This document shows positions 146 through 24,183 of a stretch of 58,913 nt of DNA, piece after piece; position 1 is the stretch's first letter, and each line of letters begins with the position of its first letter. The stretch spans positions 1 through 58,913 of the forward strand of contig JAJZRC010000001.1 of the NCBI GenBank assembly GCA_021847435.1, read 5' to 3'. Source of the DNA: a bacterium. GTDB lineage: Bacteria > Patescibacteriota > Doudnabacteria > UBA920. Below the pieces are notes generated by a model. That model saw only the letters and a list, made by a program, of their open reading frames with translations. It ran no database searches and was not told the origin of the DNA. The position numbers were made by a program, and so were the translations under genes.

Positions 146-3100
146 TTATTTAATATTTATTTTAATCGTACCTTTATTGGTACTTACTTGCAAAAACTTT
201 ATCCCCTCTTGGGCGTATACTTTAGGCAACTGGCCTTTTTGGTTATCAACTATTGTTGTTTTGTTCGCATTTGGGTTATAGTTTGCGGCCAGTATCTGCT
301 GTTTTTTTATTAGTCCTGCTTGGCGGAAATGTTTCAGCTGCCCCTTGTTTTCCGCATGAACCAATGTAAAAATGTTTTCAGGAAACACTGTTTCGGATAT
401 ATTATATTTGACATTTTTCAATACCAGAGAATAACTGCCCGAAGTCCTAGGCCTAGCGAACGATAAAACAGTTATATTATTAGCTTCATCGGTTGCGGAA
501 CATTGATTAATGGAGCAATTAATTTGAGGGTTTGCGGTCAAATTATCGCTAGCAGTATAAACAAAGTCTCTTGTCGTCATGTCATACACCACATTGATTT
601 CTGGTGGAGTTTTATCAATCGTAAATGCCAAGGTCTTTATTTCTTCGTTATTTCCAGTTTTATCAACTGCGTAAAACGCAATCGTGTAAGCCCCCTCTTC
701 ACTAATTGTGATCGGTTCATTGTAGTCCGCATATTCTCCATTATTAATCTTATACTTAATTCCCAAAACACCAGAGGTTTCTGTTTCCTTACCCAAAATA
801 ACAGGATCTTGGGCGATTAATACCACAGACACACTGCTTCTATAGTAACCTGACTGACCTTCTGCTACGGTTATTGTTGAAGTGGAGACTGGCGGAATTA
901 AATCTAAAGCATCTTCCGCACTTAAGACTGCAGACGGATTTATTATTTTTTCAAAAGTTCCGTCACCTTCCATGTCTAAATTAAGCACATCAGATTCACC
1001 TAAATTTAGATTTCCAATCAAACTAGTGGTGACAGGCAAATTACTGAATACTTGCGACCGGACCGCTGCGTCTCCTTCTATGCTTTCATCAACTAATGTA
1101 AATGTCCCGTCCCCATAGCCATTTAATTCTACTTTATATATCTGTCCATCATCGGTCGGTAAAAACACATATTTGTGGTCTCCCCAAATTTCGTATTCCG
1201 CACCCGGTATGCGGTTCTGAACACTTCCGTCCTCGGCCAAACCGGAAATATTACCAAATTGGTCTGTAACAGTTATATTAACCGGGCTTTTGATTTTTAT
1301 TTGCTCTCCTTTGATTTTACAAAGCCCAGGGTTATTAATAACTTCGCTTCTGGTTAATACCTTCCCACCTGTACCCAGTTGAGTACCAATAATTAGGCTT
1401 GCTATTTGCTGGCGCGCTCCATCTGCACTTAAAAGACTGCTGTGCGATATCTTGGGAACAAAATAAGTCTTATTTGCGTCCACCGCTAAACTGTCCGCAC
1501 TTACAAAAGGCACTGTACCGTCGCCATTGGTAATTTTTGGGAAATCAAAGGTTGGAGCAGAATCCTTGTTTATATATTTGGCAAAATTACCAAATGTGCC
1601 GCTTTTACAACCCACAATGGAGTACAAATCTATTCCTTTTGACCTTAAGTCAAAATTATCAAATTCCTGGCTATGCAAGCTTTGGCTATTGCCCATTGCA
1701 GCCGTATTTATTAAACCGTCAGCTTGCATACTCAATAATGCTTCAGTATAATTTAATTCTTTTATAACATCTCCGGAAGGGGCAAAAGGATTTATTATCT
1801 TAAAAAAACTGCCTGCCTGGTTGTAATATTCCTGTGTTGGCGCCAAGTCATATACAACCGGCATATTCTGGCCGATCTTTTTCATTTCTTCAGCATTCAA
1901 GCCCGGTATATCAAAATTGTCCCCGTTTATAAGCGTTTTAAACGCTTTGGGAGCGCCCAAATTGGGCACGCCAACAAACACTGCTTTGTTTATATGGTGA
2001 TCGGAAGGGTGTTCTAGAACGTATTCTTTAATCAGCAGTCCGCCTGTACTATGGGCAATAATATCTACTTTTCCCACTGCTCTGCCGGCATCGGTTTGAT
2101 TTAAAATATAATCAATTTGACCCTTAAGCTGATCCACAACTGTGCTGCCATCATCAAACTTACCGTTTACACCGTAACGCCAGTCATAGGGAAAAGTGAA
2201 TAAGTCTTTTCCCTCAATATAACCAAAATCTGAAAGAGTTAATTGATTTATAAGCCCCTTACTATAGTCAGAATGAAATATGCCGAGCTGTTTTTCTCTA
2301 ATTACTTGACCCATATCCAGATTAATATCTACAGGTTTTAAATCTCTACTAAACGACAAAGGATCCATAAAATCATCACTGGAATAAGCCATTTTTGGAT
2401 TTGCCCACAAAATTTCCCCCTCTTTCAAAATATCTGTACCTAACACCCCAGGCACAATCAACACCGGGGTTTTGGGTTTTACGCTCTGGAAATTCGGGTC
2501 TTTAGCCAAAACCGCAGGTGAAAAAATCGCGTTTTCAAAATACTGAACAGATCCAGGATAACCAATATACGAGAAAAACCCAACGCTGATAATCGGGTCC
2601 GCAAATGCCAAATTTATATACTGGTTGTCAAACGGCAGGAACTCGCCAGTGTCGTCATTGTGAGCTTCCCAGGTGTAATACAAAAAGTTGCCGCTTGAAT
2701 CCTTCACTTCCTTGGCCTTGAACATTACGTTTTGGGTTGGCAAATCCCGATAAAACAGCTCGCCTTTGGAACTCCACGAAATGGGATAAACCAAATTGCA
2801 ATAGTCGTCATAACGGCGATAAGTGAACGGCGCGCCATAGCCCGACAAGCCCTTAAAATGAAACCTAACCAGTCCGTCCGCGGGATCATAATCGTATGTA
2901 GGAAGCGGGATGCCCGCAGCGGCATATTCCGGCGTGGCATAGCCCAAATCACATATCTGCTGTTTGGGCTTTATGTAAGGCTCTTTATCCGCGATTTCAA
3001 TGTAAGGCTCGTAATCCTCATAACCAGTTCCCGATTCGCCCGCATACTGAATATGCCCCATGCCATAGTTTGCCAGAATATTCCCTTTGGCAGACTCAAT

Positions 3101-6799: not shown

Positions 6800-9028
6800 T
6801 TACAAACTATTTATAAAAGCATTAACGTCACTTTCCGATTCGGGACTGAAATCCAAAATTTGCTTTGCCGTTTCAATTGCCTCGTTTTTCTGCCTGTTTG
6901 CCGCGTAAGATGCCGCCAGCCGAGTATACCAGTCTATATTTCTTGAATCAACTTTTATCATCCGTTTCAACAACTCAATAAGTTTAGGGTAGTCTTTCTT
7001 CTCCACATACTGGTCGTACAGCCATAGCGCCTCCTGCGGGAGTTTGAGCTGATAACCATCATCAAATGCTTCCTCGGCGAGCTTCACTGCTTCAGGTACT
7101 TTGCCGGTTTTTTTGTACATCTGGGCTACGCGCCACTTACTGTCAGGGATATTCGGGGCCATATGGTATGCTTGTTCAATTATGGCATTCGCCTCGTCTC
7201 TTTTCCCTTGCCGATAATAAAATTCAGCAAGCACGTAGCGCGGTTCAACGCGATTTGGCGCCAATTCCATTGCCCTGCGTACCGCTGTTTCCGCTTTGGG
7301 ATCAGGCCGGCTTTGGTTAAAGCTTGCTTTTTTTAAATATAAGTCAGCCAGGTTACTCAAAAAAACCGGGTTATCATTTTTTTTATTCGCAACCTCTCCT
7401 AAATAAATGATGGCGTCATCAATAACTCGATTTATAAATTCCTTATCAGACTTGCCCTCGGAAGAAGCAATCACCATCTTAGCGGCAAAATTCGAAAACC
7501 GCACCGCTACCTGACCCCTGTCAAACACAAAAGGATGATTCCTAACCTTCAAATAATTATCATAAGCGGTTTTTGGGTCGCGAATATCGGCCGCGTTGGC
7601 AATATTCAAATCTGTAAGCACCCTGCCGATACCTAACACTGTCACGTACACGCTATAAATTACCACGACCAAAAGAGTCGTTACTACTAGCAAAGCAAGG
7701 CCTTGCGGCCGAACCTTGGCTTTTTCTGCCTTGCCTGTTGAACTTTCTGCCCACAGATACCCTGCAAAGCCGGTAAACGCGAAAAATGCCAGACTGGAAG
7801 AGATTGTTTCGAACAAAAACAAGCTCTGCACATGATACGCGACAAGTGCCCCTACAAGCAGGCAAAACTCCCCCCAGCTTAAAAGCTCTGCTTTGTATGC
7901 CCTCCAAAAAGCGGCGGCCGTAAACCACGCCAAAGCAACAAATACCAATGTTCCCACTATGCCGGTGGTAGCCAAAATTTCCAGCCAGTAGTTATGGGGC
8001 TTGTCAAACCAACCCCTGTCATATTGGTAGAGTTCTGCCGGCTGGTACTTGTTTGCGATAATGTAGTAATTTTCCGGCCCTGTGCCTAAAAGCGGTCGCT
8101 CAGTAATGCCCCGAGCTGCCATCCCCCACTGGATTAACCTGCTCTTGCTGTTACTGTCCTGCAAATTAAAAATACGCTTTAGCGCCCAGCCTTCCGGCAG
8201 GCGTTCATAATTTACCGCAACCAACGTAAGAAAAACAAGTAAAATCGCAGAACCAAAAATTCCCCATTTTTTTATCTTGCTTTTCGCTTTGTACAGATAG
8301 AGCGCTGCGCCAAATAAAAACCCGAAAACCAGCCCCACAAATGCTCCGCGGGTCACGCTGATATATATCCCTATCAAGCAAAGCAGTGAGATTGCATAGT
8401 AAAAGAACTTCTTCTTTCCGGCTTCCTGCAATCCCAAAAACACGCTTAATGATAACGGCAGCATGAGAAAACTGGCAAAAAAGATGGGGTTGCCGAACGA
8501 ACTGGAAACGCGGTCTGGCAATGCGAAATCAGGATTATAGCCGGTCAAACCCGCTTTCTGCCAAAGTCCGTAAAACACCGTGAAAGCCGAAACCAACAGA
8601 CCAACCTGCAAGAATCGCTGCAAGTAGGCGCCGTTTAATTTAGCAAGCAACAAAACATAAAAATATAACAGGGTTAGATGACCCAAATGCCATACCCCTC
8701 CCATACGTTCGTAGTCGCCCCAAAAGCTATGGCTAAAATTAACCCCCACCAGGCTGCTTAACAAATTTACTGCAAAAAAGGCCAAAAGAGCGGCATTAAG
8801 AGGGCTTTTTAAATTTGGTCGCAAACTTTTGTCGGCAATCAGCAGAAAAACATATAACGGAAGCATTAATTCAACCACCGCGCGGAAAAACAAGGCTTTA
8901 GGCGTCACATAAGGAAATAAGTAAGCATTGGAATAAAGCACCGGCACCAGCCACAGGGTACATAATAAAACAAAAAAAAGTTTGCCTGCGTTTTTGACGT
9001 TCATAACAATCATTATACCAAAAATCAC
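6800..9028 (-). CDS. O-antigen-ligase-like polytopic membrane protein with C-terminal TPR repeats (paralog)
   Basis: 742 aa with the same architecture and shared motifs as 3782..6004 (ADKSLRPNLK, ERMGG, GTGPENYY, FDKPHNYWLE). The true start may be the internal MNVKNAGK at about 9004. Confidence 0.8.
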   Translation of the reverse strand: MIFGIMIVMNVKNAGKLFFVLLCTLWLVPVLYSNAYLFPYVTPKALFFRAVVELMLPLYVFLLIADKSLRPNLKSPLNAALLAFFAVNLLSSLVGVNFSHSFWGDYERMGGVWHLGHLTLLYFYVLLLAKLNGAYLQRFLQVGLLVSAFTVFYGLWQKAGLTGYNPDFALPDRVSSSFGNPIFFASFLMLPLSLSVFLGLQEAGKKKFFYYAISLLCLIGIYISVTRGAFVGLVFGFLFGAALYLYKAKSKIKKWGIFGSAILLVFLTLVAVNYERLPEGWALKRIFNLQDSNSKSRLIQWGMAARGITERPLLGTGPENYYIIANKYQPAELYQYDRGWFDKPHNYWLEILATTGIVGTLVFVALAWFTAAAFWRAYKAELLSWGEFCLLVGALVAYHVQSLFLFETISSSLAFFAFTGFAGYLWAESSTGKAEKAKVRPQGLALLVVTTLLVVVIYSVYVTVLGIGRVLTDLNIANAADIRDPKTAYDNYLKVRNHPFVFDRGQVAVRFSNFAAKMVIASSEGKSDKEFINRVIDDAIIYLGEVANKKNDNPVFLSNLADLYLKKASFNQSRPDPKAETAVRRAMELAPNRVEPRYVLAEFYYRQGKRDEANAIIEQAYHMAPNIPDSKWRVAQMYKKTGKVPEAVKLAEEAFDDGYQLKLPQEALWLYDQYVEKKDYPKLIELLKRMIKVDSRNIDWYTRLAASYAANRQKNEAIETAKQILDFSPESESDVNAFINSL

Positions 9029-9122
9029 CTGCCATAAACAAACCCCGCCCTTTCTTAAGAAAGGGCGGGGCTGTCTTTTAGGTTTACGGTACCCAAAAGG
9101 AACCGTTAGAACCTACAACTTA

Positions 9123-12100
9123 CTAATCCAAAGTTTGGGCAGTAGTCGGAAGGTTCTTGACCAAGTAATCACCGTACCAGTCGGTGGTCGAAGAGCTGTG
9201 GCTGATAGCCGACAGGTCGGACCACACCAGGTTGCCGGTCTGTGAAGCAGCGGCAACACCGGTTGCAAACGAGCTCTGGGCTCGGGCAATGCTGGTGGTA
9301 ATGTAATCGGTGGTTTCAATAGTACCGCCAACCGTGCCCTTCAATTCGAAGGTCTTGGAGCCGCTGATACCCGGTATGCTGGTCGGCACGAAGGTAACAG
9401 TCGCGTTGCTGGCGGAGGTCGAGCTGGACAGGTCGGTGCTGGAAGTTACAGTACCGGAAATCTGTACGCCCGTGTCAGCGTCGTAAACTGCCAAGGAGCC
9501 GGCCGTAATGGTCGGACCGGTTTCCTTAGACAAAGTCCAGACGAGCTTATAAACCTCAATGGAACCCGTACCGCCGGTAGAAACCGTGGTCTTAGCCAAG
9601 GTATTGGTACCAGCAACCAAGCTGGTAGCGCCGAGCGAAGCCGGGCTTACCGTCGGAATGGCCTTGAAGACGTAAATGTCATTGCCGGCCGGGTTGGACT
9701 CGGTTACTGTGGTCTGAGAACCGGTGGAGCTGTCGGCAGTGGCAGAAGTCAAGGTTACCTTGACATCGGACTGCGAATCGCCCCCGCCGGAAACAATGGT
9801 GCCGAGCACCAAGTCAACGGTTACCACCTTGGTGCCGTTGGCCGCAACCGGGATAGCCATGCCGCTGAAGGTAACCGTGGACGCACCAAACTTGGTGTAA
9901 GTCAACGCGTTACCGCTCGCGTCAGTGGCCTTGACTACCACGCTGGACACCGGAGAGGTGCTGGCGAGGGTGAAGGTCATGTCGGTTACGGTGTAGTTGT
10001 CATAGGTGGAGGTAAACTTGAAAGCGGCGGCGGAGATGGTTTGGTTGTCGTCAGCCAAAGCAGCTACCGGAGCCGAAGAATCCAAGGCGGCGGAAATGCT
10101 GCCGGATTGCGCGGTAACGGTCTGGCCGGTGGTAGCGGAAGTGCTCGCGGCCTGGCCGGACGCCGAAGTGGTGCCGGACACTGTCATAGTCGCGTAAATC
10201 GCATCGCCGTTGCTGATGGAAGAACCAATGTCAGCGTAGATTTCTATTCCGACAGCGTCATTCTTAGCCAAGGTCTGCGACAGGCTCCAGGTGTTGCCGG
10301 TAGCACTGACTGTGGCCTTAGTGGTCTGCTTGGAACCGTTGTACATGACGTACACGTTGGTCAAGTCAGCCGCAGCAAAGGTGCCGCTGGCAGTGAAATC
10401 AACGGAAATGGTGTCAATGTTGACGTCTTCCGTGCTGTTGCCAGTCAGGTTGTAAGCAGCAACCTTGTAGGCAGTCTGCGGAACAACCGAATTCTGGTTG
10501 CCATAGGTGGTGTTCTTAGCCAGGGAGATGGAACCGGCTGAGACGTTTACCGAGTTAGCGGAAACGCTGGAAGTCGGAACGTTCACCGTGGTGGCGGAAA
10601 CCGTACCCTGACCGTTGGAGCTGCCGGTATTCAAGCTAGCCTGAATATCGTCGCCGTCGGCCATAGCGCCGGTTCCGTCATTGTCATACACGTCAGCGCG
10701 GAACTCTACTGTAGCAGCAGTGCCGGCCGGGAAGGTGTAATTAACGGTGAAGGATGTGCCGGTCTTGGCAACAGTAGCGGTGCTGCCGTACTGGGCGCCA
10801 TTAATGAGCACGCGACCATTGCGGAGCGTGCTGGTTTGGGTGCCGCCGCCGCTCGTGGCGTGGGTGTAACCCACGGTCAAGGTTTCAACCTTAACCGGTT
10901 CGCCATAAGCGGTAACAGTCCACTTGCCCAACATAATATCGGAACCGTTCAAGGTAACGTTACCAGACGGAGAAGTGGAAGCTTTCTGTACGGTTACGGT
11001 CGCGGAGTTGACCGTCAATTCACCGGCAGTAAGCGGAGTGGTGTCGGAAATAGCGACGTTCGCGCCGTAGCTGGAATCTACGAGTTCAATGTCAGCCTTG
11101 TTGCGGAGGGACATCTCGACTTTGCGGGAAGAACCGCCGACAACGTCCGCCAATACCTTAAACACGCGGGAACCGGTCTTAACCGTTACCGGAGAAGCCG
11201 GAACAAAGGTCGCGTAAGCGTTGCTGTCCAGGTTCTGGACCTGGGCAACCTGGGTGCCATCTACCAACAAGCGGAAGTTGCGGATATCGCTGGAATTGAT
11301 GGAATCAATCTGACGAAGGGCCATGCGATTCAAGGTAACATCGCGGTTGGAGACTGTCAAAGTGCTCTGCCAGACCACGACATCGTTAGCCGGGTCAATG
11401 GTGCTGGCGGACGGGGTAATGGTACCGAAGTCCGCGGTAGCCAAAGTGGCAGAAGCAATGGTGTGAATGGCACCGCTAAGGGAAACCGTAGCAGCGCTGC
11501 CGCCGGAAACAGTGTAAGAAGTCATCTGTACACCCACAGTCTGGCCGGAGGTGCTGGAAGCTACGTCAGCCTTGACGGTAATGGTCTTGCTGCCGGAAAC
11601 AGTGAACAAACCAGAAGCGTTGGTGAAGCTTACCATGCTGTCGGAACCCACGGAAGCGGCATCGGTGATGCGCTGCGTGCCGTCAAACAGGTAAACGTTG
11701 CTCAAGGTAGAATCGGCGGAAACGCCCATTCTCTTGAATTTGACTTCGGTAACAGTGCCAGTACCAGTGAAGGTAAACTTGGCGATAGGAGCTACCGCGG
11801 CGCCGGCAACCAAGGTGCTGGCAGCCGGGGTGTCAGAAGCCAAAGAGGCGCTGACAGAACCGGAAACTACCGGGGTGCCAGGAGTGCTGGCTAAGGAAGT
11901 CGGGCTCAATTGTCCGGCTACGCGAGCGGCCATAACGCCAGTCTGGGTCATGGCTTTGTCAGCTGCGTTGGCAGGGACAACGTTGGCAAAGGAATAGCCC
12001 CAAGAGTTGAAGGTAGCTAAGTCCGGAATGCCAAGCAGGCCGGTGGCGCCGACCAATTGGACGGTACCGTTGTTGTTAACTAGCACGCCCGGTCTGTGGG

Positions 12101-12569
12101 CGGCGGTGGTGTTGTCGATGTTAGAAGTGGAGGTCATCCAGGAAACATCGCCATAACCTGCTCTGGAGAAGCTAAAACCAAGGCCGGTAAAGACGGCAGC
12201 GGAAGTGAAGCCGGCTTTTTGCGCGCCTGTTACCAGGTAGCAAGTGCCTTTGTCAGCGCCCCTGTCAGAGCACATAACTTTACCGTCTTGCGGCGGAATG
12301 AACGCGCCGGCCGGCAAAGCTAAGTCATCCGCATTGGCATCCACCACGGAAGCAAACGAGTTGAAACCGTAGGAGAGGAAAGCGCCAGCGGAGGTGTAGG
12401 CGCGGCGGGTGCCATCCGGCATAATCATCCAGATGGTACCGTCAGAGCTTTTGACGTTGGTACCGACAGCATGCGCAGCAGCCTGAGCCGCAAACGGAGC
12501 CACCAGAGACAAAGTCATAGCAACCGCAGAACCTACAGCAAAGAGTTTCTTTGCAACAGAATTTTGCAT
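9123..12569 (-). CDS. secreted Ser/Thr/Ala/Gly/Val-rich cell-surface (S-layer-like) protein
   Basis: 1148 aa. Signal peptide MQNSVAKKLFAVGSAVAMTLSLVAPFAAQAAAHA. Three N-terminal repeats of a (A/T)F(L/T/N)S.G(F/Y)(N/S)F(A/S) module. About 900 aa of low-complexity beta-strand-like T/S/V/A sequence follow. No Cys outside the N-domain. Confidence 0.85.
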   Translation of the reverse strand: MQNSVAKKLFAVGSAVAMTLSLVAPFAAQAAAHAVGTNVKSSDGTIWMIMPDGTRRAYTSAGAFLSYGFNSFASVVDANADDLALPAGAFIPPQDGKVMCSDRGADKGTCYLVTGAQKAGFTSAAVFTGLGFSFSRAGYGDVSWMTSTSNIDNTTAAHRPGVLVNNNGTVQLVGATGLLGIPDLATFNSWGYSFANVVPANAADKAMTQTGVMAARVAGQLSPTSLASTPGTPVVSGSVSASLASDTPAASTLVAGAAVAPIAKFTFTGTGTVTEVKFKRMGVSADSTLSNVYLFDGTQRITDAASVGSDSMVSFTNASGLFTVSGSKTITVKADVASSTSGQTVGVQMTSYTVSGGSAATVSLSGAIHTIASATLATADFGTITPSASTIDPANDVVVWQSTLTVSNRDVTLNRMALRQIDSINSSDIRNFRLLVDGTQVAQVQNLDSNAYATFVPASPVTVKTGSRVFKVLADVVGGSSRKVEMSLRNKADIELVDSSYGANVAISDTTPLTAGELTVNSATVTVQKASTSPSGNVTLNGSDIMLGKWTVTAYGEPVKVETLTVGYTHATSGGGTQTSTLRNGRVLINGAQYGSTATVAKTGTSFTVNYTFPAGTAATVEFRADVYDNDGTGAMADGDDIQASLNTGSSNGQGTVSATTVNVPTSSVSANSVNVSAGSISLAKNTTYGNQNSVVPQTAYKVAAYNLTGNSTEDVNIDTISVDFTASGTFAAADLTNVYVMYNGSKQTTKATVSATGNTWSLSQTLAKNDAVGIEIYADIGSSISNGDAIYATMTVSGTTSASGQAASTSATTGQTVTAQSGSISAALDSSAPVAALADDNQTISAAAFKFTSTYDNYTVTDMTFTLASTSPVSSVVVKATDASGNALTYTKFGASTVTFSGMAIPVAANGTKVVTVDLVLGTIVSGGGDSQSDVKVTLTSATADSSTGSQTTVTESNPAGNDIYVFKAIPTVSPASLGATSLVAGTNTLAKTTVSTGGTGSIEVYKLVWTLSKETGPTITAGSLAVYDADTGVQISGTVTSSTDLSSSTSASNATVTFVPTSIPGISGSKTFELKGTVGGTIETTDYITTSIARAQSSFATGVAAASQTGNLVWSDLSAISHSSSTTDWYGDYLVKNLPTTAQTLD

Positions 12570-13218
12570 TTTTTAAGTATTCCTTTTTTTCCAATATCCC
12601 GCTCCGGTCGCCCGGCACAGGAGGATTGATTATTCAATTGCGACAATCAATTTTTCTTGGAAAAAATGTTAATTAGTTTTACATCTTTTGCCCGGTTGCC
12701 TATGGGCGCTCTAGAGATCGCCTATATAAACCAGAAACAACGAGATGCATTGGGCCACATTTGATAGCGACTAACGCCGCTAAGATCGACCATCCGTCCG
12801 CCAACCGGCGGAGCGGACCATAAGCAGCTTGCCGTTAGGCAAACTGCCCAATTAATTACTCCGGGGCTATACACCCCGGAAAAATACCAATTATCCTTTA
12901 ACAGGCATTTTTCCGGGCACAAGCGCTAAAATACCGCCTAAAATCAGGTTTTAGGCTTCTAGAGGCTTTTTGCCTTAAAACTTACCAGGCCTTAAGGCTA
13001 CAACAAAAAAGACGAGACCTTTTAATCTTTGTTACACTGCTTTTTCAGGCTTTTTCTGGCTAAAACCAAATACGTAAAAAGCCAGGGAAAAGTTGTTATT
13101 TTTTGGCTTGTATAAGCCATAAAATCACTAACAGCCTTTCCCTGACCTTTATTTTTTATACTTGGGGATGTAACTTCAGCATTGGAATAAATTGGTATTT
13201 TCCACATCAACTTTCAAT

Positions 13219-13247
13219 ATTATAATATATCCTGAATTATTTGTCAA
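13219..13247 (-). promoter_or_regulatory. consensus sigma70-type promoter facing the surface-protein gene
   Basis: Minus strand reads TTGACA (13247..13242), a 17-nt spacer, then TATAAT (13224..13219). It sits about 640 nt upstream of the ATG at 12569. Confidence 0.5.
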
Positions 13248-13269
13248 AAGATACTTTTAATGCTAAAAT
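13241..13269 (+). promoter_or_regulatory. sigma70-like promoter for the tRNA-Pro repeat unit
   Basis: TTGTCA (13241..13246), a 17-nt spacer, then TAAAAT (13264..13269). It ends about 19 nt before the first repeat unit. Back-to-back with the minus-strand promoter. Confidence 0.45.
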
Positions 13270-13287
13270 CAACAAGTTGCTGAATTT

Positions 13288-13596
13288 TGGGCTGTAGTAT
13301 ACCGGTAGTACGTCCCGATGGACATCGGGATAGACCAGGGTCTACCTGCTCCCCTTTCTGATAAGGCTGATAGTATTAACAATCAAATAACGGGCTGTAG
13401 TATACCGGTAGTACGTCCCGATGGACATCGGGATAGACCAGGGTCTACCTGCTCCCCTTTCTGATAAGGCTGATAGTATTAACAATCAAATAACGGGCTG
13501 TAGTATACCGGTAGTACGTCCCGATGGACATCGGGATAGACCAGGGTCTACCTGCTCCCCTTTCTGATAAGGCTGATAGTATTAACAATCAAATAA
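13288..13596 (+). repeat. three tandem 103-bp units, each beginning with an exact copy of tRNA-Pro nt 1-25
   Basis: Units start at 13288, 13391 and 13494; the intact tRNA starts at 13597, giving an exact period of 103. Units look identical by eye apart from the first base of unit 1 (T not C). Unit layout: CGGGCTGTAGTATACCGGTAGTACG, then hairpin TCCCGATGGACATCGGGA, then TAGACCAGGGTCTACCTGCTCCCC, then an AT-rich tail. Confidence 0.95.
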
Positions 13597-13670
13597 CGGG
13601 CTGTAGTATACCGGTAGTACGCCTGCTTTGGGAGCAGGTAGACTGGGTTCGATTCCCAGCAGCCCGACCA
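13597..13670 (+). tRNA. tRNA-Pro (anticodon UGG)
   Basis: Hand-folded cloverleaf. Acceptor CGGGCTG/CAGCCCG (C1:G72, A73, as in bacterial tRNA-Pro). D arm GTAT-ACCGGTA-GTAC. Anticodon arm CCTGC-TTTGGGA-GCAGG. T arm CTGGG-TTCGATT-CCCAG. CCA is encoded. Confidence 0.9.
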
Positions 13671-13695
13671 AAACTTTGCAATTCAATAATAGATA

Positions 13696-13728
13696 AAGCG
13701 CAGCCTCCGGGCTGCGCTTTTATTATTT
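13696..13728 (+). terminator. intrinsic terminator after tRNA-Pro
   Basis: AAGCGCAGCC-TCCG-GGCTGCGCTT followed by TTATTATTT. Confidence 0.6.
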
Positions 13729-13743
13729 AATCTTCCAACGCAC

Positions 13744-14061
13744 TCATTGCTGTTGGGTACCATTCTCAGCCAATTCCGCCACATAAACCCCAGGGAACGG
13801 TTTTATATACCGCTCCACTAGTCCGCTTTTTTTATAATCGCTCAAAGTTTTTTCCGCTTCCGCCATAAGCCGTCCCGTGCCAATGCCGCAAATAACTTTG
13901 ACAATCCTCTCCCCCGCCATAAACTGCCGGTTTAAAAAACTTTCCAGCTCCGGCATCGCCTGGGCTAAAGTTTGCCCGTGCAAATCCAAACCGGGGATTT
14001 TGTCCGACTGGGCATGCCCTTTAGCGGCGGCCTGCCATAAGGCTTCATCGCTTGGCAACAT
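13744..14061 (-). CDS. Smr-domain protein
   Basis: 105 aa. LDLHGQTLAQA ... VKVICGIGTGRL matches the Smr (MutS2 C-terminal-like) signature. Confidence 0.8.
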   Translation of the reverse strand: MLPSDEALWQAAAKGHAQSDKIPGLDLHGQTLAQAMPELESFLNRQFMAGERIVKVICGIGTGRLMAEAEKTLSDYKKSGLVERYIKPFPGVYVAELAENGTQQQ

Positions 14062-14064
14062 AAT

Positions 14065-14913
14065 TTATGAAATGGCGTTATTCCAATCTTGGACGAACTG
14101 GCCCAGGCCTTTGTCAGTCATATCGTCCTGGATATTAAACTCCGTCCAGTCCTTGTTCAAATCAAACTCCTGGTACTCAATGGGCTTAAAACCCTCCGGA
14201 TTATAAACAAAATCCGGTCCGGGCAGCTTTTTGCCGTCCTCGGCCCACTTTTGAATGTACTTAAAGCCCGCGGTAATTATGTCCGTACCCGCGGCAATTG
14301 CCGCGTAAAACTGGTCCAAAGAGCGCAAAGACGCGGACAGCACCAAAACGTGCCCGTCGCCCTGCTTGTACATGCGAATGATGTTGCGGATTAAATCCAG
14401 CCCCCGGGCGCCCGCGTCCGTATGCCGGCCGATGAACGGGGAAATATACACCTGTCCCTTGCTGGCGCCGCGGCTCATGGCGTAAACCGCGGCGGCCTGC
14501 TCCTGGTTAAAGCACAAGGTCATATTCACCCGCATGCCTTCCTTAACAGCCTGAGCCGCGGCCTTCATGCCTTCCGGAATAATGGGAAACTTCAAATACG
14601 CGTGAGGCGTCCATAAAAACAGCTCCCGGGCCTGCTTGAGCATGTCTTCCGCGGAGGTATTCTTGTCCGCGTACACTTCCACGGAAATCGAGCCCTGCGG
14701 GATCAGGCTTTCAATTTCCTTGATGGTTTTGCGGTAGCTGTCCCAAATTTCTTCCCTGCTGAATTTGCCCCGGGTTTTCAGCCGTTCCTGCACTTGGGGG
14801 CTCTTAATAAAATACGTGGGGTTGGTGGTCTGCCCGTCCAAAAAACCCAAAAGCTTCAAGCTTTCCGCGGTTTCTTTCGGATCGCCGGAATCCAAAAAAA
14901 ATTTAGTTTGCAT
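14065..14913 (-). CDS. tal: transaldolase-family protein
   Basis: 282 aa. FFLDSGDPKE and GQTTNPTYF are the transaldolase/F6P-aldolase N-terminal motifs. Confidence 0.8.
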   Translation of the reverse strand: MQTKFFLDSGDPKETAESLKLLGFLDGQTTNPTYFIKSPQVQERLKTRGKFSREEIWDSYRKTIKEIESLIPQGSISVEVYADKNTSAEDMLKQARELFLWTPHAYLKFPIIPEGMKAAAQAVKEGMRVNMTLCFNQEQAAAVYAMSRGASKGQVYISPFIGRHTDAGARGLDLIRNIIRMYKQGDGHVLVLSASLRSLDQFYAAIAAGTDIITAGFKYIQKWAEDGKKLPGPDFVYNPEGFKPIEYQEFDLNKDWTEFNIQDDMTDKGLGQFVQDWNNAIS

Positions 14914-15042
14914 GGAACTCTCTATTTTTACTAATTAGACGCATCACTTGCTTTACGGAGTTCAGAATATATTAAATCCCTTTTTAGTCGATATGGCATT
15001 TTTATTTTTCCGTATATCCGTACTTCTCCGTACTCCGTAAAA

Positions 15043-15819
15043 TTAATTGAACAAGTGTTTGCTCTTGGAAAGCTCTTTGATTACATCGTAAGCCTCTTCC
15101 GCGTCGCTGACCAAGTGGTAGATGTCCATGTCTTCTTTGGAGATTGCCTTATTCTGTTCGTAGATTACCGTTTTTATCCAGGCCAGAAGCGGCTGCCAAA
15201 ATTCCTTGTTTACCAAAATTACCGGAACCGGCTTAATCTTTTTAGTTTGAATAAGGGTCACCATTTCAAAAAATTCGTCCAAAGTTCCAAAACCTCCGGG
15301 GAAAAATATATAAACGCTGGAAGCCGTCTCAAGCATCACCTTGCGGGTAAAAAAGAAGGAAAAGCTTTCGTATTCCTTGACGTACTGGTTGGTGCGCTGC
15401 TCCATGGGCAGGCGGATGTTGATTCCTACGCTGCGGCCGCCGGCTTCGCACGCGCCCTTGTTGGCCGCTTCCATGATCCCCGGCCCCCCGCCGGTAATAA
15501 TGCTGAAACCCGCCTTGGACAGCTTGAATGCCAGCTCCGTGGCCTCATTATACACCCCGTTCTGCAGCGATACCCGGGCGCTGCCCATAATGCTGACTGA
15601 TTTTTTGAATTTTTTTAGAAAATCAAAGCCGGCAATGAATTCGGCCAAAATCTTCATAATCGTCCAGGAAGACACTTCCCGGGTGCGGCCTTTTTTAAAA
15701 ATGTGGGGCAGCTGGGCGACCGGAATACAGATTTCCCTGCCCTGGGAGGTAAAACAAACCACTTCGTCGTGGCTATGGACATGATCGCTGTCTTTTTCTT
15801 TATTTTTTTTTGTGAGCAT
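15043..15819 (-). CDS. LOG-family (TIGR00730-type) nucleotide phosphoribohydrolase
   Basis: 258 aa. Contains GGGPGIMEAANKGA and PGGFGTLDEFFE. Confidence 0.85.
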   Translation of the reverse strand: MLTKKNKEKDSDHVHSHDEVVCFTSQGREICIPVAQLPHIFKKGRTREVSSWTIMKILAEFIAGFDFLKKFKKSVSIMGSARVSLQNGVYNEATELAFKLSKAGFSIITGGGPGIMEAANKGACEAGGRSVGINIRLPMEQRTNQYVKEYESFSFFFTRKVMLETASSVYIFFPGGFGTLDEFFEMVTLIQTKKIKPVPVILVNKEFWQPLLAWIKTVIYEQNKAISKEDMDIYHLVSDAEEAYDVIKELSKSKHLFN

Positions 15820-15835
15820 AATTTTGTTTAATGGT

Positions 15836-16894
15836 TTAATCTTGAGAAGTCAAATTTAAGGCTCCGCTTTCCGAATTTTCCATTTCCGGAAGGTAAGTAC
15901 CGGCTCGCGCCAGGCTGTTTAATTCCGCGCGCCTTAGGAAGGCGGCCTGGGCAGAAGTTACATTCTCCGGTTTGCCCGCCCATGCCTGGAGCGCCGGGGC
16001 CTGCAGCGCGCGGCCGTAAGAAAAACTCAAAGGCCAGGGCAAATGGCCGTTCTTATTCATTTCGTTCAGATTTGCGGTTGCCTCAGCCGGACTTTGTCCG
16101 CCGGATAAAAACACTATCCCGGGAACTTCGGGCGGCACGGTTTTTAAAAATACGCGCAGCGTGGCTTCTGCCACTTCCCCGCTGTTTGCCTGCTCCGGGC
16201 ATTCGGAGCCCGAAACCACCATGTTTGGCTTAAGCAATATTCCGGTCAAATCCACTTCCTGCTGCTTTAACTGTGCAAAAACTTCCGTTAACACCCGTTC
16301 AGTCACAGCTTCGCAATTCTGTTGGGTATGGCTGCCATCCATCAGCACTTCCGGCTCCACAATGGGAACCAAGCCAGCCATTTGGCAAATTTTGGCGTAC
16401 CGGGCAAGCCGCGACGCATTCCCTTTCACGCACTCATCCGTGGGCAAGCCTCCGCCTATGCCGAACACCGCCCGCCATTTGGCAAATTTGGCGCCTAAAG
16501 CAACATAACCCTTAACTCTTTCCTCCAGCCCATCCAAGCCGCGGGTCAGTTTTTCCCCGGACGCGCCGAACGGTTCCGTGCCCATATCCACCTTAATTCC
16601 CGGCAAAATTCCTTTTTGCTCTAAAATTTTTACAAAGCTTTCGCCGGATGACGCGCTCTGCCGGATGGTTTCATCGAATAAAATAGCTCCTGAAATGTAA
16701 TTTTCCGCGCCTGGGGCCGTAAACAGCATTTCGCGGTACGCTATCCTGCTGGCCGGATTGGATTCCAGATTAACGGACTCAAACCGCTTTTGGATGGTGG
16801 CGTCGCTTTCATCCGCGGCCAAAATCCCCTTGCCCGGGGCCATTAAAGCTTTGGCGACTATGGAGAGCTCGCTGATATGGCTGTTTGTATTCAT
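15836..16894 (-). CDS. fba: class I fructose-bisphosphate aldolase
   Basis: 352 aa. Contains GILAADES..TIQKRF, YREMLFT and LLKPNMV (the Schiff-base Lys region). Confidence 0.85.
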   Translation of the reverse strand: MNTNSHISELSIVAKALMAPGKGILAADESDATIQKRFESVNLESNPASRIAYREMLFTAPGAENYISGAILFDETIRQSASSGESFVKILEQKGILPGIKVDMGTEPFGASGEKLTRGLDGLEERVKGYVALGAKFAKWRAVFGIGGGLPTDECVKGNASRLARYAKICQMAGLVPIVEPEVLMDGSHTQQNCEAVTERVLTEVFAQLKQQEVDLTGILLKPNMVVSGSECPEQANSGEVAEATLRVFLKTVPPEVPGIVFLSGGQSPAEATANLNEMNKNGHLPWPLSFSYGRALQAPALQAWAGKPENVTSAQAAFLRRAELNSLARAGTYLPEMENSESGALNLTSQD

Positions 16895-16895
16895 A

Positions 16896-18821
16896 CTAAA
16901 TTATGGATTTAACTGCTTTAATAATAGCATCCTTGTCGATTTCCATAAACGCCAGCAGCTCGCCCGGCTTGCCGCTATGAGGGATTTTATCCACTGACAG
17001 GGCTTTGAATTTCACGCTTAAGCCCGATTCGCTGATGCCGTACAGCACGGCTTCGGCCAGGCCGCCTTCTCTGTGGTTGTCTTCCACGGTAATAATGGCT
17101 TTGGTCTCGGCAGCCGCCCGCTGAAGCGCCTTCAAATCCAAAGGCTTGATGCTGTACAAATCAATGACGCGGATGCTGATATTTTCCTTTTGCAGCTCCT
17201 CATGCGCGGCCAGAGCCTCGTGCAGGGTAACGCCCGCGCTAATCACGGTAGCGGCATCAAAATCCGATGATTTAAGCGTGCATGACCCCCCGATTTTAAA
17301 TTCGTGCCGGGTTAACTTGTCTCTTGTCTCTTGTCTCTTGCCACTATACAATATCGCTGTTTCTTTCCTGGCGGTCTGTAAATAGACATTCCCCCGGTGC
17401 TTGGCCGCTTCATAAACCAATTTTTCCGTGGAAACCGCATCGCTAGGGTACAGCACGACCGTTTCCGGCAGCGCGCGGAACATGGCGATTTCTTCCAAGC
17501 CCATTTGGGAACTGCCGTCTTCGCCGATGGATACGCCCGCATGGGAACCGACAAATTTGATGTTGCTCTGGGCCAAAGCCGACATGCGGATTTGGTCATA
17601 GGCGCGGGTCAAAAAAGCGGCAAAAGTGGAAACAAACGGCACTTTTCCCCGGCGCGCAAAGCCCAGCGCCGCCCCGACCATGTTTTGCTCCGCTATGAAC
17701 ATTTCAAAAAATCTCTCCGGATGTTTTTTCTTAACCGCATCGGCATAAGTAGAGTTGGAAGTTTCCGCGTCCAGCACTACCACATCCGGGTTGGCGTCTG
17801 CGAGATGCGCTAAAGCATTGCCGTAGGCTTTTCTGGTTGCCACCGGCTTGCCGTCCAAATAATCGGTAAACTTCATATCCGAACTTGCCGCTTGCGACTT
17901 GCCGCTTGCAACCGGTTCCGGCTTTGCCATTTCCCCGACAGTACGGGTGTCCGCGCCTCCCAGTTCCGACAAGGCCTGCTCTAATTCCTCACGCGAAAGC
18001 GGCTTGCCGTGCCAGCCGTCCTGGTTTTCCATAACACTCACGCCCTTGCCTTTTAAAGTTTTGGCAATAATAATAACCGGTTTCTCATTTGAAATTGGGA
18101 ATTGGGAATTGGGAATTCCTTTGGTCCTTGACTCTTGGCTCTTAAAATTTCCTTGCGTGATAACTTTAAACGCGTCCTGAATTTCCGCAAGGTCATGCCC
18201 ATCAATCACAACCGCTTCCCAACCAAAACTCTCGACTTTTTTTTGATAAGATAAAACATCATGCCCATACATGGTTTCTCCCCTTTGCCCCAGACGGTTC
18301 AAGTCCAAAATGCCGACTAAATTGTCCAGTTTATAGTAAGCAGCCAATGCCATAGCTTCCCATACGCTGCCTTCGGCCATCTCGCTGTCCCCCAGCAGCA
18401 CAAAAGTCCTGTAAGACAGTTTGTCGAGCTTGGCATTTAAAGCCATCCCCACGCCTACGGAAAGCCCCTGGCCCAAAGAGCCGGTCGGCACTTCGGTATA
18501 AGGAAAAGCGGAAGTCGGATGGCCTTCCAACGGGCTGCCGAATTTGCGCAAAGACAGCAGCTCGGATTCGGCCACTTTGCCTGCCGCGGCGTAGATGGAA
18601 TAAAACAGCGGCGCGGCGTGGCCTTTGGAAAAAATCAGCCGGTCGTTGTTCAAATATTCGGGGTTATCCAGATCATAGCGGTAAAAGCCGCCAAAACACA
18701 GCACAGCCATCAGGTCCGCGGCTGACAGGCAGGAGGAAGGATGCCCGCTGCCCGCTGCCGTGGTGGAAACCAGAGAATAATACCTAAGCAGCCGGGCCAA
18801 ATTTTCCAATTGGTTTTGCAT
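16896..18821 (-). CDS. tkt: transketolase (single fused polypeptide)
   Basis: 641 aa. GSGHPSS, GSLGQGL and GDS.MAEGSVWEA form the TPP-binding region; pyrimidine-binding and C-terminal domains follow. Contains three short heptamer-repeat-encoded inserts. Confidence 0.9.
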   Translation of the reverse strand: MQNQLENLARLLRYYSLVSTTAAGSGHPSSCLSAADLMAVLCFGGFYRYDLDNPEYLNNDRLIFSKGHAAPLFYSIYAAAGKVAESELLSLRKFGSPLEGHPTSAFPYTEVPTGSLGQGLSVGVGMALNAKLDKLSYRTFVLLGDSEMAEGSVWEAMALAAYYKLDNLVGILDLNRLGQRGETMYGHDVLSYQKKVESFGWEAVVIDGHDLAEIQDAFKVITQGNFKSQESRTKGIPNSQFPISNEKPVIIIAKTLKGKGVSVMENQDGWHGKPLSREELEQALSELGGADTRTVGEMAKPEPVASGKSQAASSDMKFTDYLDGKPVATRKAYGNALAHLADANPDVVVLDAETSNSTYADAVKKKHPERFFEMFIAEQNMVGAALGFARRGKVPFVSTFAAFLTRAYDQIRMSALAQSNIKFVGSHAGVSIGEDGSSQMGLEEIAMFRALPETVVLYPSDAVSTEKLVYEAAKHRGNVYLQTARKETAILYSGKRQETRDKLTRHEFKIGGSCTLKSSDFDAATVISAGVTLHEALAAHEELQKENISIRVIDLYSIKPLDLKALQRAAAETKAIITVEDNHREGGLAEAVLYGISESGLSVKFKALSVDKIPHSGKPGELLAFMEIDKDAIIKAVKSII

Positions 18822-23743: not shown

Positions 23744-23989
23744 TTAAGGCAATAAGTGCTTTTTGAGAGAAACCCTACCCGAACCAGTTTTTAGATAATA
23801 CTCAAATTCTTTGGCTGATTTTTTGTCAGCAAAGCCTAAATAACAAATTAGCTTCCAGGGCTTAAACTTTTTGGTATGTTTAGAGTCGCCCCAATCATGA
23901 ACTTTAACTCGAGATTTTAAATTTTCGGAATAGCCTACATAATGTTCTTTGGGGAAATTTATGCTCTGCAGAATATATACGTAAAACAT
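23744..23989 (-). CDS. GIY-YIG nuclease-family small protein
   Basis: 81 aa. Begins FYVYILQS ... HYVGYS and has an E-F-E-Y-Y-L-K region. Sits next to tRNA-Gly. Confidence 0.85.
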   Translation of the reverse strand: MFYVYILQSINFPKEHYVGYSENLKSRVKVHDWGDSKHTKKFKPWKLICYLGFADKKSAKEFEYYLKTGSGRVSLKKHLLP

Positions 23990-24108
23990 ACAAGCCCGCC
24001 TTCGTCAGACTTCGGCGCGCAGCCTTCGCTGTTTAATTTTTATTTTAATGCTTCCAATCTTCAACAAATCTACTTCTGGCGTAAGCCAGCCGAAGCTTTA
24101 GCGAAGGC

Positions 24109-24183
24109 TGGAGCGGGTAGGGGGAGTCGAACCCCCATCATCAGTTTGGAAAACTGAGATAATAACCGCTATACGATACCCGC
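24109..24183 (-). tRNA. tRNA-Gly (anticodon UCC)
   Basis: Minus strand: GCGGGTA TC GTATAGCGGTTATTATC, anticodon arm TCAGT-TTTCCAA-ACTGA, T arm GGGGG-TTCGACT-CCCCC, then TACCCGC-T-CCA. Confidence 0.9.

Follow-up and report, generated by a model that had tools for sequence, protein, structure and literature searches.

The recombination-dependent head-to-tail amplification of tRNA-containing segments depends on the nuclease activity of SegB, a phage T6 endonuclease of the GIY-YIG type that cuts within tRNA genes (PMC13096335). Insertions that carry GIY-YIG ORFs and are not introns, belonging to neither group I nor group II, are found in the rRNA genes of CPR bacteria, where they sit at the tops or bases of stem-loops and where short versions devoid of ORFs also exist (PMC11270868). 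Here we analyzed a tRNA-Pro locus within a stretch of 58,913 nucleotides, herein called the window, from a bacterium of the Doudnabacteria (contig JAJZRC010000001.1 of GCA_021847435.1), at which the tRNA gene is preceded by tandem units each carrying a part of that same tRNA. These units are, in our judgment, probably the decayed and tandemly amplified 5′ scar of a small GIY-YIG element that invaded tRNA-Pro, with the nuclease having since been lost from this site.

Results

Anatomy of the array

Tandem Repeats Finder reported a 103-bp repeat at 13289..13621, having 3.2 copies with 100% matches and zero indels, and a single intact tRNA-Pro was called by ARAGORN and Rfam at 63.3 bits, which bore out an earlier sequence-only reading of three exact 103-bp units ahead of an intact tRNA-Pro(UGG). 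Each unit consists, in order, of a tRNA 5′ copy (GGGCTGTAGTATACCGGTAGTACG), the palindrome TCCCGATGGACATCGGGA, TAGAC, CAGG followed by GTCTACCTGCTCCC, and an AT-rich tail. As had been described, the palindrome forms an 18-nt hairpin that occupies the place of the 17-nt anticodon arm and is followed by TAGAC, and a second small palindrome, TAGACC-AG-GGTCTA, is also present in the unit. The 14-mer of the unit proposed to be antisense to tRNA nt 35–48 was confirmed as the exact reverse complement of that segment, and when up to one mismatch is allowed, the window contains four occurrences of it, the number expected by chance being 0.01. An apparent longer inverted copy of the tRNA, 27 nt at 78% match, comprised only those 14 exact bases with weak flanks and was not relied upon.

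The segment duplicated from the tRNA is its 5′ part (nt 1/2–25), not its 3′ part. The claim that every unit begins with nt 1–25 held overall, with the exception of unit 1, in which the copy is 24 nt long because a T stands in place of C at nt 1, as expected for a displaced old tRNA copy; the later units take nt 1 from the preceding unit. No unit gave any match in ARAGORN or Rfam, RF00005 included, even at E ≤ 1, and all of them are devoid of a T arm and an acceptor 3′ strand. They are hence not tRNAs, as had been stated, and for the same structural reason they cannot serve as the tRNA-shaped decoys that had been proposed. Neither do they form a CRISPR array, since the whole 103-bp units are identical without differing spacers, and this 100% identity of the copies agrees with the recent expansion that had been suggested.

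Scanning also recovered the sigma-70-like promoter and the intrinsic terminator that had been noted on either side of the array and tRNA gene (Table 1), and the promoter was found to be conserved both in a related locus lacking units (L017) and in one bearing a nuclease gene (L044). Unit 1 starts 19 nt from the −10 element, as compared to 18 nt for the bare tRNA of L017.

A conserved region lies upstream of the array, at ~13040..13247, with homologous counterparts in L017, L044, L047 and L022. It contains an inverted repeat of 22 nt (13077-13098 / 13129-13150) as well as, on the minus strand, a perfect TTGACA-17-TATAAT promoter (13247..13219). Rfam gave zero matches for the region, which might encode a small RNA or serve as leader to a neighboring gene for a 1148-aa protein.

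Table 1. Positions in the window of the array, the tRNA-Pro gene and their transcription signals
Feature	Position	Strand	Remarks
Sigma-70-like promoter	13241..13269	+	TTGTCA-17-TAAAAT, extended TG; drives array and tRNA; scan
Unit 1, promoter-proximal pseudo-tRNA unit	13289..13391	+	
Unit 1: copy of tRNA nt 2-25	13289-13312	+	
Unit 1: palindrome 1	13313-13330	+	
Unit 1: palindrome 2	13331-13344	+	TAGACCAGGGTCTA
Unit 1: antisense 14-mer	13340-13353	+	
Unit 1: AT-rich tail	13354-13391	+	38 nt
Unit 2	13392..13494	+	Exact copy; add 103 to the sub-feature positions of unit 1
Unit 3	13495..13597	+	Exact copy; sub-features shifted by +206; final base is nt 1 of the tRNA
tRNA-Pro(UGG) (TGG in DNA), intact	13597..13670	+	CCA encoded; same sequence as tRNA-Pro of L019 and L022
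tRNA segment GGGAGCAGGTAGAC, anticodon nt 2 to end of variable loop	13630..13643	+	Inverted copy in every unit
Intrinsic terminator	13695..13728	+	11-bp stem and T run; stem-loop 13695..13720; scan

Genomic surroundings and copy number

The neighbors of the array are ordinary chromosomal genes, encoding the 1148-aa protein and a Wzy-TPR protein upstream, and Smr, transaldolase, LOG, class I aldolase and transketolase downstream. The best relatives of the transaldolase belonged to Patescibacteria/CPR metagenome-assembled genomes, at no more than 57% identity. In agreement with the earlier statement that no integrase is present, no integrase domain was found in the ORFs of 6800..18821, i.e. within about 5 kb of the array.

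An independent assembly of the same strain (L001, GCA_027327465.1) was 100% identical to the window over 12.3 kb and contained one unit versus three. The junction between unit and tRNA is reproducible, being found in both assemblies, and the number of units is assembly-dependent; since a copy number of three versus one at 100% identity could be the result of assembly collapse, the three-copy count stays provisional.

Short-read contigs of the same strain (L002, L004 and L005) stop inside the tRNA, and four short-read contigs end in or just after it. The end of L005 lies within the 25-nt repeat, and those of L002 and L004 immediately follow GTAGAC, where the T arm begins; these end points may be repeat-induced graph breaks or may reflect an unseen variant allele.

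The same site in related genomes

The search of related genomes that had been suggested for the unit succeeded in part: only one other genome (L022) contained units of this type, and six related tRNA-Pro loci were without them (L017, L019, L020, L026, L027 and L031). The 5′ part of the tRNA is identical to that of the window in L017, L019, L027 and L031, and carries one substitution in L020 and L026.

Two loci were syntenic with the window. L017 shares with it the promoter and the upstream gene for the 1148-aa protein, and holds a bare tRNA-Pro, thus constituting an empty site; the possibility that the natural target was a separate tRNA-like gene was rejected for this locus, the tRNA at the empty site being normal. 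L044, which was found by a metagenome scan using the palindrome pattern, shares the promoter and has an upstream gene with 70% nucleotide identity to that of the window. At this locus, tRNA nt 1–26, TCCCGATGGACATCGGGA, TAGAC and a partial T arm are followed by an 88-aa ORF, an intact tRNA-Pro and a further fragment made up of D-arm, palindrome and TAGAC. The ORF encodes a GIY-YIG nuclease (PF01541, 57 bits), and the module of tRNA nt 1–26, TCCCGATGGACATCGGGA and TAGAC is identical to the window unit at 50 of 50 nucleotides. The same chromosomal site was hence encountered in three states, namely empty in L017, with a nuclease gene and pseudo-tRNAs in L044, and with units only in the window. There is no GIY-YIG ORF at the tRNA-Pro locus of the window, and as one is present at the same site in L044, the window locus is best understood as a relic and not as a complete element. 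Alignment at the level of single bases thus showed the window unit to correspond to the 5′ pseudo-tRNA module of nuclease cassettes.

L022 carries, directly upstream of the real tRNA, two units with a 92-nt period, and homology to the unit of the window extends across the first ~65 nt of the latter. Conservation covers the tRNA part, the stems of both hairpins and the greater part of the antisense stretch, with differing loops and a tail unrelated to that of the window, and the first unit has a decayed acceptor part, which parallels the absence of nt 1 from unit 1 of the window. One base of the antisense segment differs between L022 and the window although the tRNA is identical. A check for covariation between antisense segment and tRNA, as had been advised, therefore gave a negative result, with no compensatory change seen between the two genomes. 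The units in the window and L022 could reflect shared ancestry rather than mobility.

When the 3′ half of the window unit (after TAGAC) was compared to the nuclease and tRNA flanks of L044, L047 and L017 and to the tail of the L022 unit, nothing significant was found (p 0.2–1.0), and the idea that the unit tail could be a remnant of the nuclease ORF was thereby left unsupported.

As judged relative to the conserved upstream region and the gene for the 1148-aa protein, the tRNA-Pro segment has the opposite orientation in L022 (10944..12369) and L047 (879..1377) to that in the window, L017 and L044, implying that an inversion of the segment has occurred in certain lineages.

The nuclease family and its tRNA contexts

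Homologues of the L044 nuclease were found in 12 distinct contexts, counting one GIY-YIG ORF located by a tRNA-Gly gene in the window itself. Eleven of the 12 adjoin a tRNA gene, nine carry palindrome-patched pseudo-tRNA pieces, and none contains an integrase gene. The nuclease gene is usually located 0–30 bp upstream of the tRNA, or overlaps it. In the related genomes, the cassette comprises the gene for a GIY-YIG nuclease of 76–118 aa together with an intact tRNA gene, and is bordered by 5′ and 3′ pieces, overlapping each other, from a second copy of the same tRNA; in these pieces one arm is replaced or interrupted by a GC-rich palindrome, either YCCGAT-N2-4-ATCGGR or CCCCGAA-NN-TTCGGGG.

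Overlapping 5′ and 3′ pseudo-halves around nuclease gene and tRNA, both having the palindrome in place of the anticodon arm, were seen with tRNA-Pro UGG (L047), a tRNA-Ala-like gene (L048) and tRNA-Ala UGC (L057), with the tRNA of the cassette keeping its normal anticodon arm. The 5′ and 3′ pseudo-pieces at the tRNA-Pro UGG of L044 likewise both have the palindrome for the anticodon arm. With tRNA-Pro GGG (L049) it is the T arm of the upstream copy that is replaced by the palindrome, and with tRNA-Ala CGC either the cassette lies in the anticodon loop between the halves TCCCGAT / ATCGGGA (L056), or two hairpins are inserted in the anticodon stem (L058). The CCCCGAA-NN-TTCGGGG type was found with tRNA-Thr in L050, having a window-like layout upstream of the real tRNA (leader, tRNA nt 1–25, palindrome and a few T-stem bases) with the nuclease gene downstream, and in the similar L061, where tRNA nt 1–26 and nt 44–53 are retained. 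The palindromes of L047 and L061 are perfect. The half-site was found to track the nuclease clade, with CCCGAT accompanying P0001, P0002, P0005, P0008, P0021 and P0026, and CCCCGAA accompanying P0013 and P0019.

Tandem arrangements were not confined to the window. L050 contains an exact array of an 82-nt unit in 6.3 copies, and in L061 a unit of 106 nt directly precedes the real tRNA, in addition to a tandemly duplicated segment of nuclease gene and 3′ pseudo-tRNA (222..930). Identical head-to-tail units bounded by short direct repeats hence recur (3.2 copies in the window, 6.3 in L050, two in L022 and two of the segment in L061).

Two of the cassettes had further peculiarities. In L056 (2040..2560), nested inverted repeats surround the cassette, with a 22-nt repeat flanking the nuclease ORF and a 19-nt acceptor-stem extension flanking the tRNA-Ala; the old copy of the tRNA has, within its D loop, a separate insertion of 80 nt between TCCCGA and TCGGGA. 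In L048 (2840..3290), the disrupted resident tRNA-Ala-like gene differs from the cassette tRNA-Ala(GGC) in the D arm and in an acceptor pair, and the replacement tRNA may thus be of foreign origin.

The GIY-YIG ORF by tRNA-Gly encodes 81 aa (23744..23989, minus strand), is located about 120 bp downstream of tRNA-Gly(UCC) (24109..24183), and is the only GIY-YIG ORF in the window; it belongs to a different clade, with 35% identity to the L044 nuclease. No CCCGAT palindrome was found beside this ORF and tRNA-Gly. A stretch of 15 nt at the 3′ end of the ORF (23773..23787) is 87% complementary to the 3′ end of the tRNA-Gly (24108..24122).

The nuclease family has at least 2,414 members at E ≤ 1e-8, with all of those source names that give a taxon pointing to CPR phyla, and 4,240 relatives were found at the 50%-identity cluster level. 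The catalytic GIY-YIG residues Y, Y, R, H and E are conserved. Among solved structures the best matches were the UPF0213 proteins 1zg2 (1.2e-18) and 1ywl, followed by SLX1 (1e-8). To our knowledge the UPF0213 proteins have no assigned function, and SLX1 is a eukaryotic structure-specific nuclease with SLX4 as its partner. Neither NCBIfam nor PADLOC gave any match for the nucleases. Scanning viral contigs with the nuclease alignment revealed no viral relative, and the exact palindrome pattern occurred in viral contigs only as two matches in coding DNA without tRNA context, which were read as chance; a viral origin was thus rejected.

Among members having upstream in-frame extensions, the palindrome or a tRNA arm was translated in 15 of 31 and 26 of 58, as compared to less than one in shuffled sequences. 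Spurious N-termini such as MDIGQVWGS, RPDGHRGG and AHLVER..EVAGSNP are accordingly seen where gene calls were extended upstream through pseudo-tRNA or palindrome DNA, including P0002, P0005, P0021, P0058, P0073, P0144, P0213 and others. Some database proteins (P0139, P0140 and P0153 were noted) have double length with two GIY-YIG stretches, which is consistent with read-through of duplications. Members of the family go under no more specific name than 'GIY-YIG nuclease family protein' or, in some cases, under the erroneous one of 'excinuclease ABC subunit C'.

Predicted folding of the tRNA precursor

Using ViennaRNA, precursors with either one or three units were predicted to pair tRNA nt 35–48 with the leader at a probability of 0.94–0.98, with loss of the cloverleaf; the antisense segment of the last unit out-competed the anticodon stem in silico, and the 14-bp duplex was calculated at −28.1 kcal/mol. 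The cloverleaf was kept in a precursor without unit. It was also kept in the precursor of L022, where pairing with the leader had a probability of 0.006. An antisense effect is hence predicted for this genome but is not conserved. The earlier suggestion that the leader sequesters the tRNA body or alters its processing accordingly holds as a computed outcome for the last unit, and fails with respect to L022 and to the six loci without units. Loss of the pairing in L022, together with the sporadic occurrence of the units, favors a tolerated by-product over a selected regulator.

Discussion

That the array is a scar is supported by L044, which at the same chromosomal site matches the unit base for base through the palindrome and TAGAC. 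The course of events would be as follows. The nuclease, whose cleavage is predicted, would break the resident tRNA gene in a stem-loop, whereupon the break would be repaired, with crossover, from the palindrome-patched tRNA segment of the element, the template being a small element that holds this patched internal segment, the nuclease gene and a replacement tRNA. Nuclease gene and replacement tRNA would thereby integrate, leaving two overlapping pseudo-halves that are both patched. Double-strand-break repair with crossover follows a Szostak-type model, and overlapping pseudo-halves that both have the donor palindrome are the product expected from it. The nuclease gene would later be deleted when the 3′ pseudo-half recombined with the 3′ part of the replacement tRNA, giving a 5′ pseudo-tRNA unit followed by the tRNA, i.e. 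the one-unit state. Unequal exchange or slippage at the 25-nt direct repeats would then produce the array, a process that the palindromes, or breaks made by the nuclease, might promote. We interpret the inverted 14-mer as a break-repair or fold-back junction, since it starts in the anticodon (nt 34/35) and equals the 3′-ended strand of a break at that position. As the part of the unit after TAGAC has no significant similarity to any GIY-bearing locus, the route proposed from cassette to solo unit is tentative. The units would be co-transcribed with the tRNA as a long leader, which probably represents a burden that is tolerated rather than a function. Several points count against the array being such a scar: no nuclease gene is present at this locus in the window; the spared replacement tRNA, with its normal anticodon arm, is unexplained by a simple model of anticodon-arm cutting; the closest solved relatives of the nucleases are UPF0213 and SLX1 instead of characterised homing enzymes; and L062 is the sole family member among the contexts that is not near a tRNA.

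Other explanations were weighed against this one. That the palindrome is a cis site of the element itself, either a terminal inverted repeat or the site that a nuclease, dimeric or structure-specific, recognizes or cleaves, so that the element would cut itself and not the target tRNA, we regard as doubtful, and scars and arrays would also then be by-products. Such a function could account for the half-site co-varying with nuclease clade (CCCGAT versus CCCCGAA), for the perfect palindromes of L047 and L061, for the halves that bracket the cassette in L056 and for the presence of SLX1 among the closest solved relatives; at most loci, however, intact palindromes are duplicated on both sides, away from the ends of the cassette. 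A selected regulatory leader, with antisense segment and acceptor/D-arm copies pairing with the tRNA body and thus delaying or tuning the maturation of tRNA-Pro, seems quite unlikely, in spite of the strong duplex and the cloverleaf loss predicted for the window and of the conservation, between window and L022, of the hairpin stems but not of their loops. The mismatch in L022 opposite an identical tRNA, with its near absence of pairing, the lack of any compensatory change and the six related loci without units all argue against it, and the same palindrome occurs with tRNA-Ala and tRNA-Pro(GGG) by nuclease genes, so it is not specific to one tRNA. A selected antisense function is thus unsupported.

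Partial tRNA duplications beside tRNA genes are a classic mark of integrase elements, which would speak for the scar of an integrase-type island or prophage having the tRNA as its attachment site. This we consider highly improbable, because no integrase was found within about 5 kb nor in the 12 related contexts, the 5′ end is duplicated and not the 3′ end, and the gene accompanying the tRNA in relatives encodes a GIY-YIG nuclease. The sequence-only reading had dismissed the scar of an att site or mobile element because no element is visible; that dismissal agrees with there being no integrase or visible element in the window, but not with the L044 module being joined to a GIY-YIG gene. An assembly artefact, whereby the array or at least its three copies were made by the assembler, is very unlikely. 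The single unit of L001 at 100% identity and the four short-read contigs ending inside or just after the tRNA would be compatible with it, but the junction between unit and tRNA is found in both assemblies so that only copy number is in doubt, and homologous units with a diverged first copy are found in the unrelated assembly L022. Short-read assemblers, moreover, usually reduce the copies of an exact tandem repeat instead of multiplying them. We therefore retain the amplified scar of a GIY-YIG element as the explanation of the array.

More tentatively, the array could be the footprint of an undescribed class of selfish elements abundant in CPR, each composed of a minimal GIY-YIG nuclease and a replacement tRNA gene, that swap an arm of the resident tRNA for the cognate palindrome, make the host dependent on the tRNA of the element and, by nuclease-provoked repair, give rise to tandem pseudo-tRNA arrays in leaders. 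In bacteria with such very small genomes (CPR), tRNA genes are single-copy, as far as we know, and a large unstudied family of tiny nucleases with thousands of members appears to remodel them. Should the logic of a replacement tRNA hold, it would represent a new way for a selfish element to become indispensable, and a cellular counterpart of the tRNA amplification of SegB type. Explaining a strange tRNA leader as the scar of a mobile element also cautions against reading antisense function into leaders of this kind. On the practical side, gene-calling programs read through pseudo-tRNAs and palindromes and so lengthen these proteins at the N-terminus, and short-read assemblies break at nuclease/pseudo-tRNA loci.

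Comparison with known systems

In the searchable full-text literature, we found no description of small GIY-YIG genes of cellular organisms that are accompanied by pseudo-tRNAs patched with a palindrome. The window feature is apparently a relic, and the family of elements that it revealed would, as far as sequence can tell, be of the free-standing homing-endonuclease kind, with features that we did not find described. Like SegB and other free-standing GIY-YIG homing endonucleases of T-even phages, the family has its nuclease genes among tRNA genes. Unlike SegB, it is cellular, found in CPR bacteria and, by scan, in no viral contig; its members consist of the catalytic domain only (76–118 aa, cleavage being predicted) without a separate DNA-binding domain, and are accompanied by palindrome-patched pseudo-tRNAs and a replacement tRNA. 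Best matched among solved structures by the small GIY-YIG proteins of UPF0213 and by the SLX1 domain, the nucleases also share phyla and nuclease superfamily with the insertions of CPR rRNA genes, but whereas those inserts can be tolerated or removed, here the resident tRNA gene is destroyed and a replacement supplied.

With tRNA-targeting integrative elements the cassettes have in common the insertion in a tRNA gene, its partial duplication and the restoration of a working tRNA by element-borne sequence. They differ from them in having no integrase, in duplicating the 5′ part and overlapping internal parts, in replacing an arm by a palindrome and in carrying a whole tRNA gene. The array of the window, finally, resembles solo LTRs and MITE-like derivatives in being a non-coding remnant, left when recombination between direct repeats removed the coding part, of which the copy number can vary; in contrast to these, the remnant is here a patched half-tRNA placed in the leader of an essential tRNA gene.
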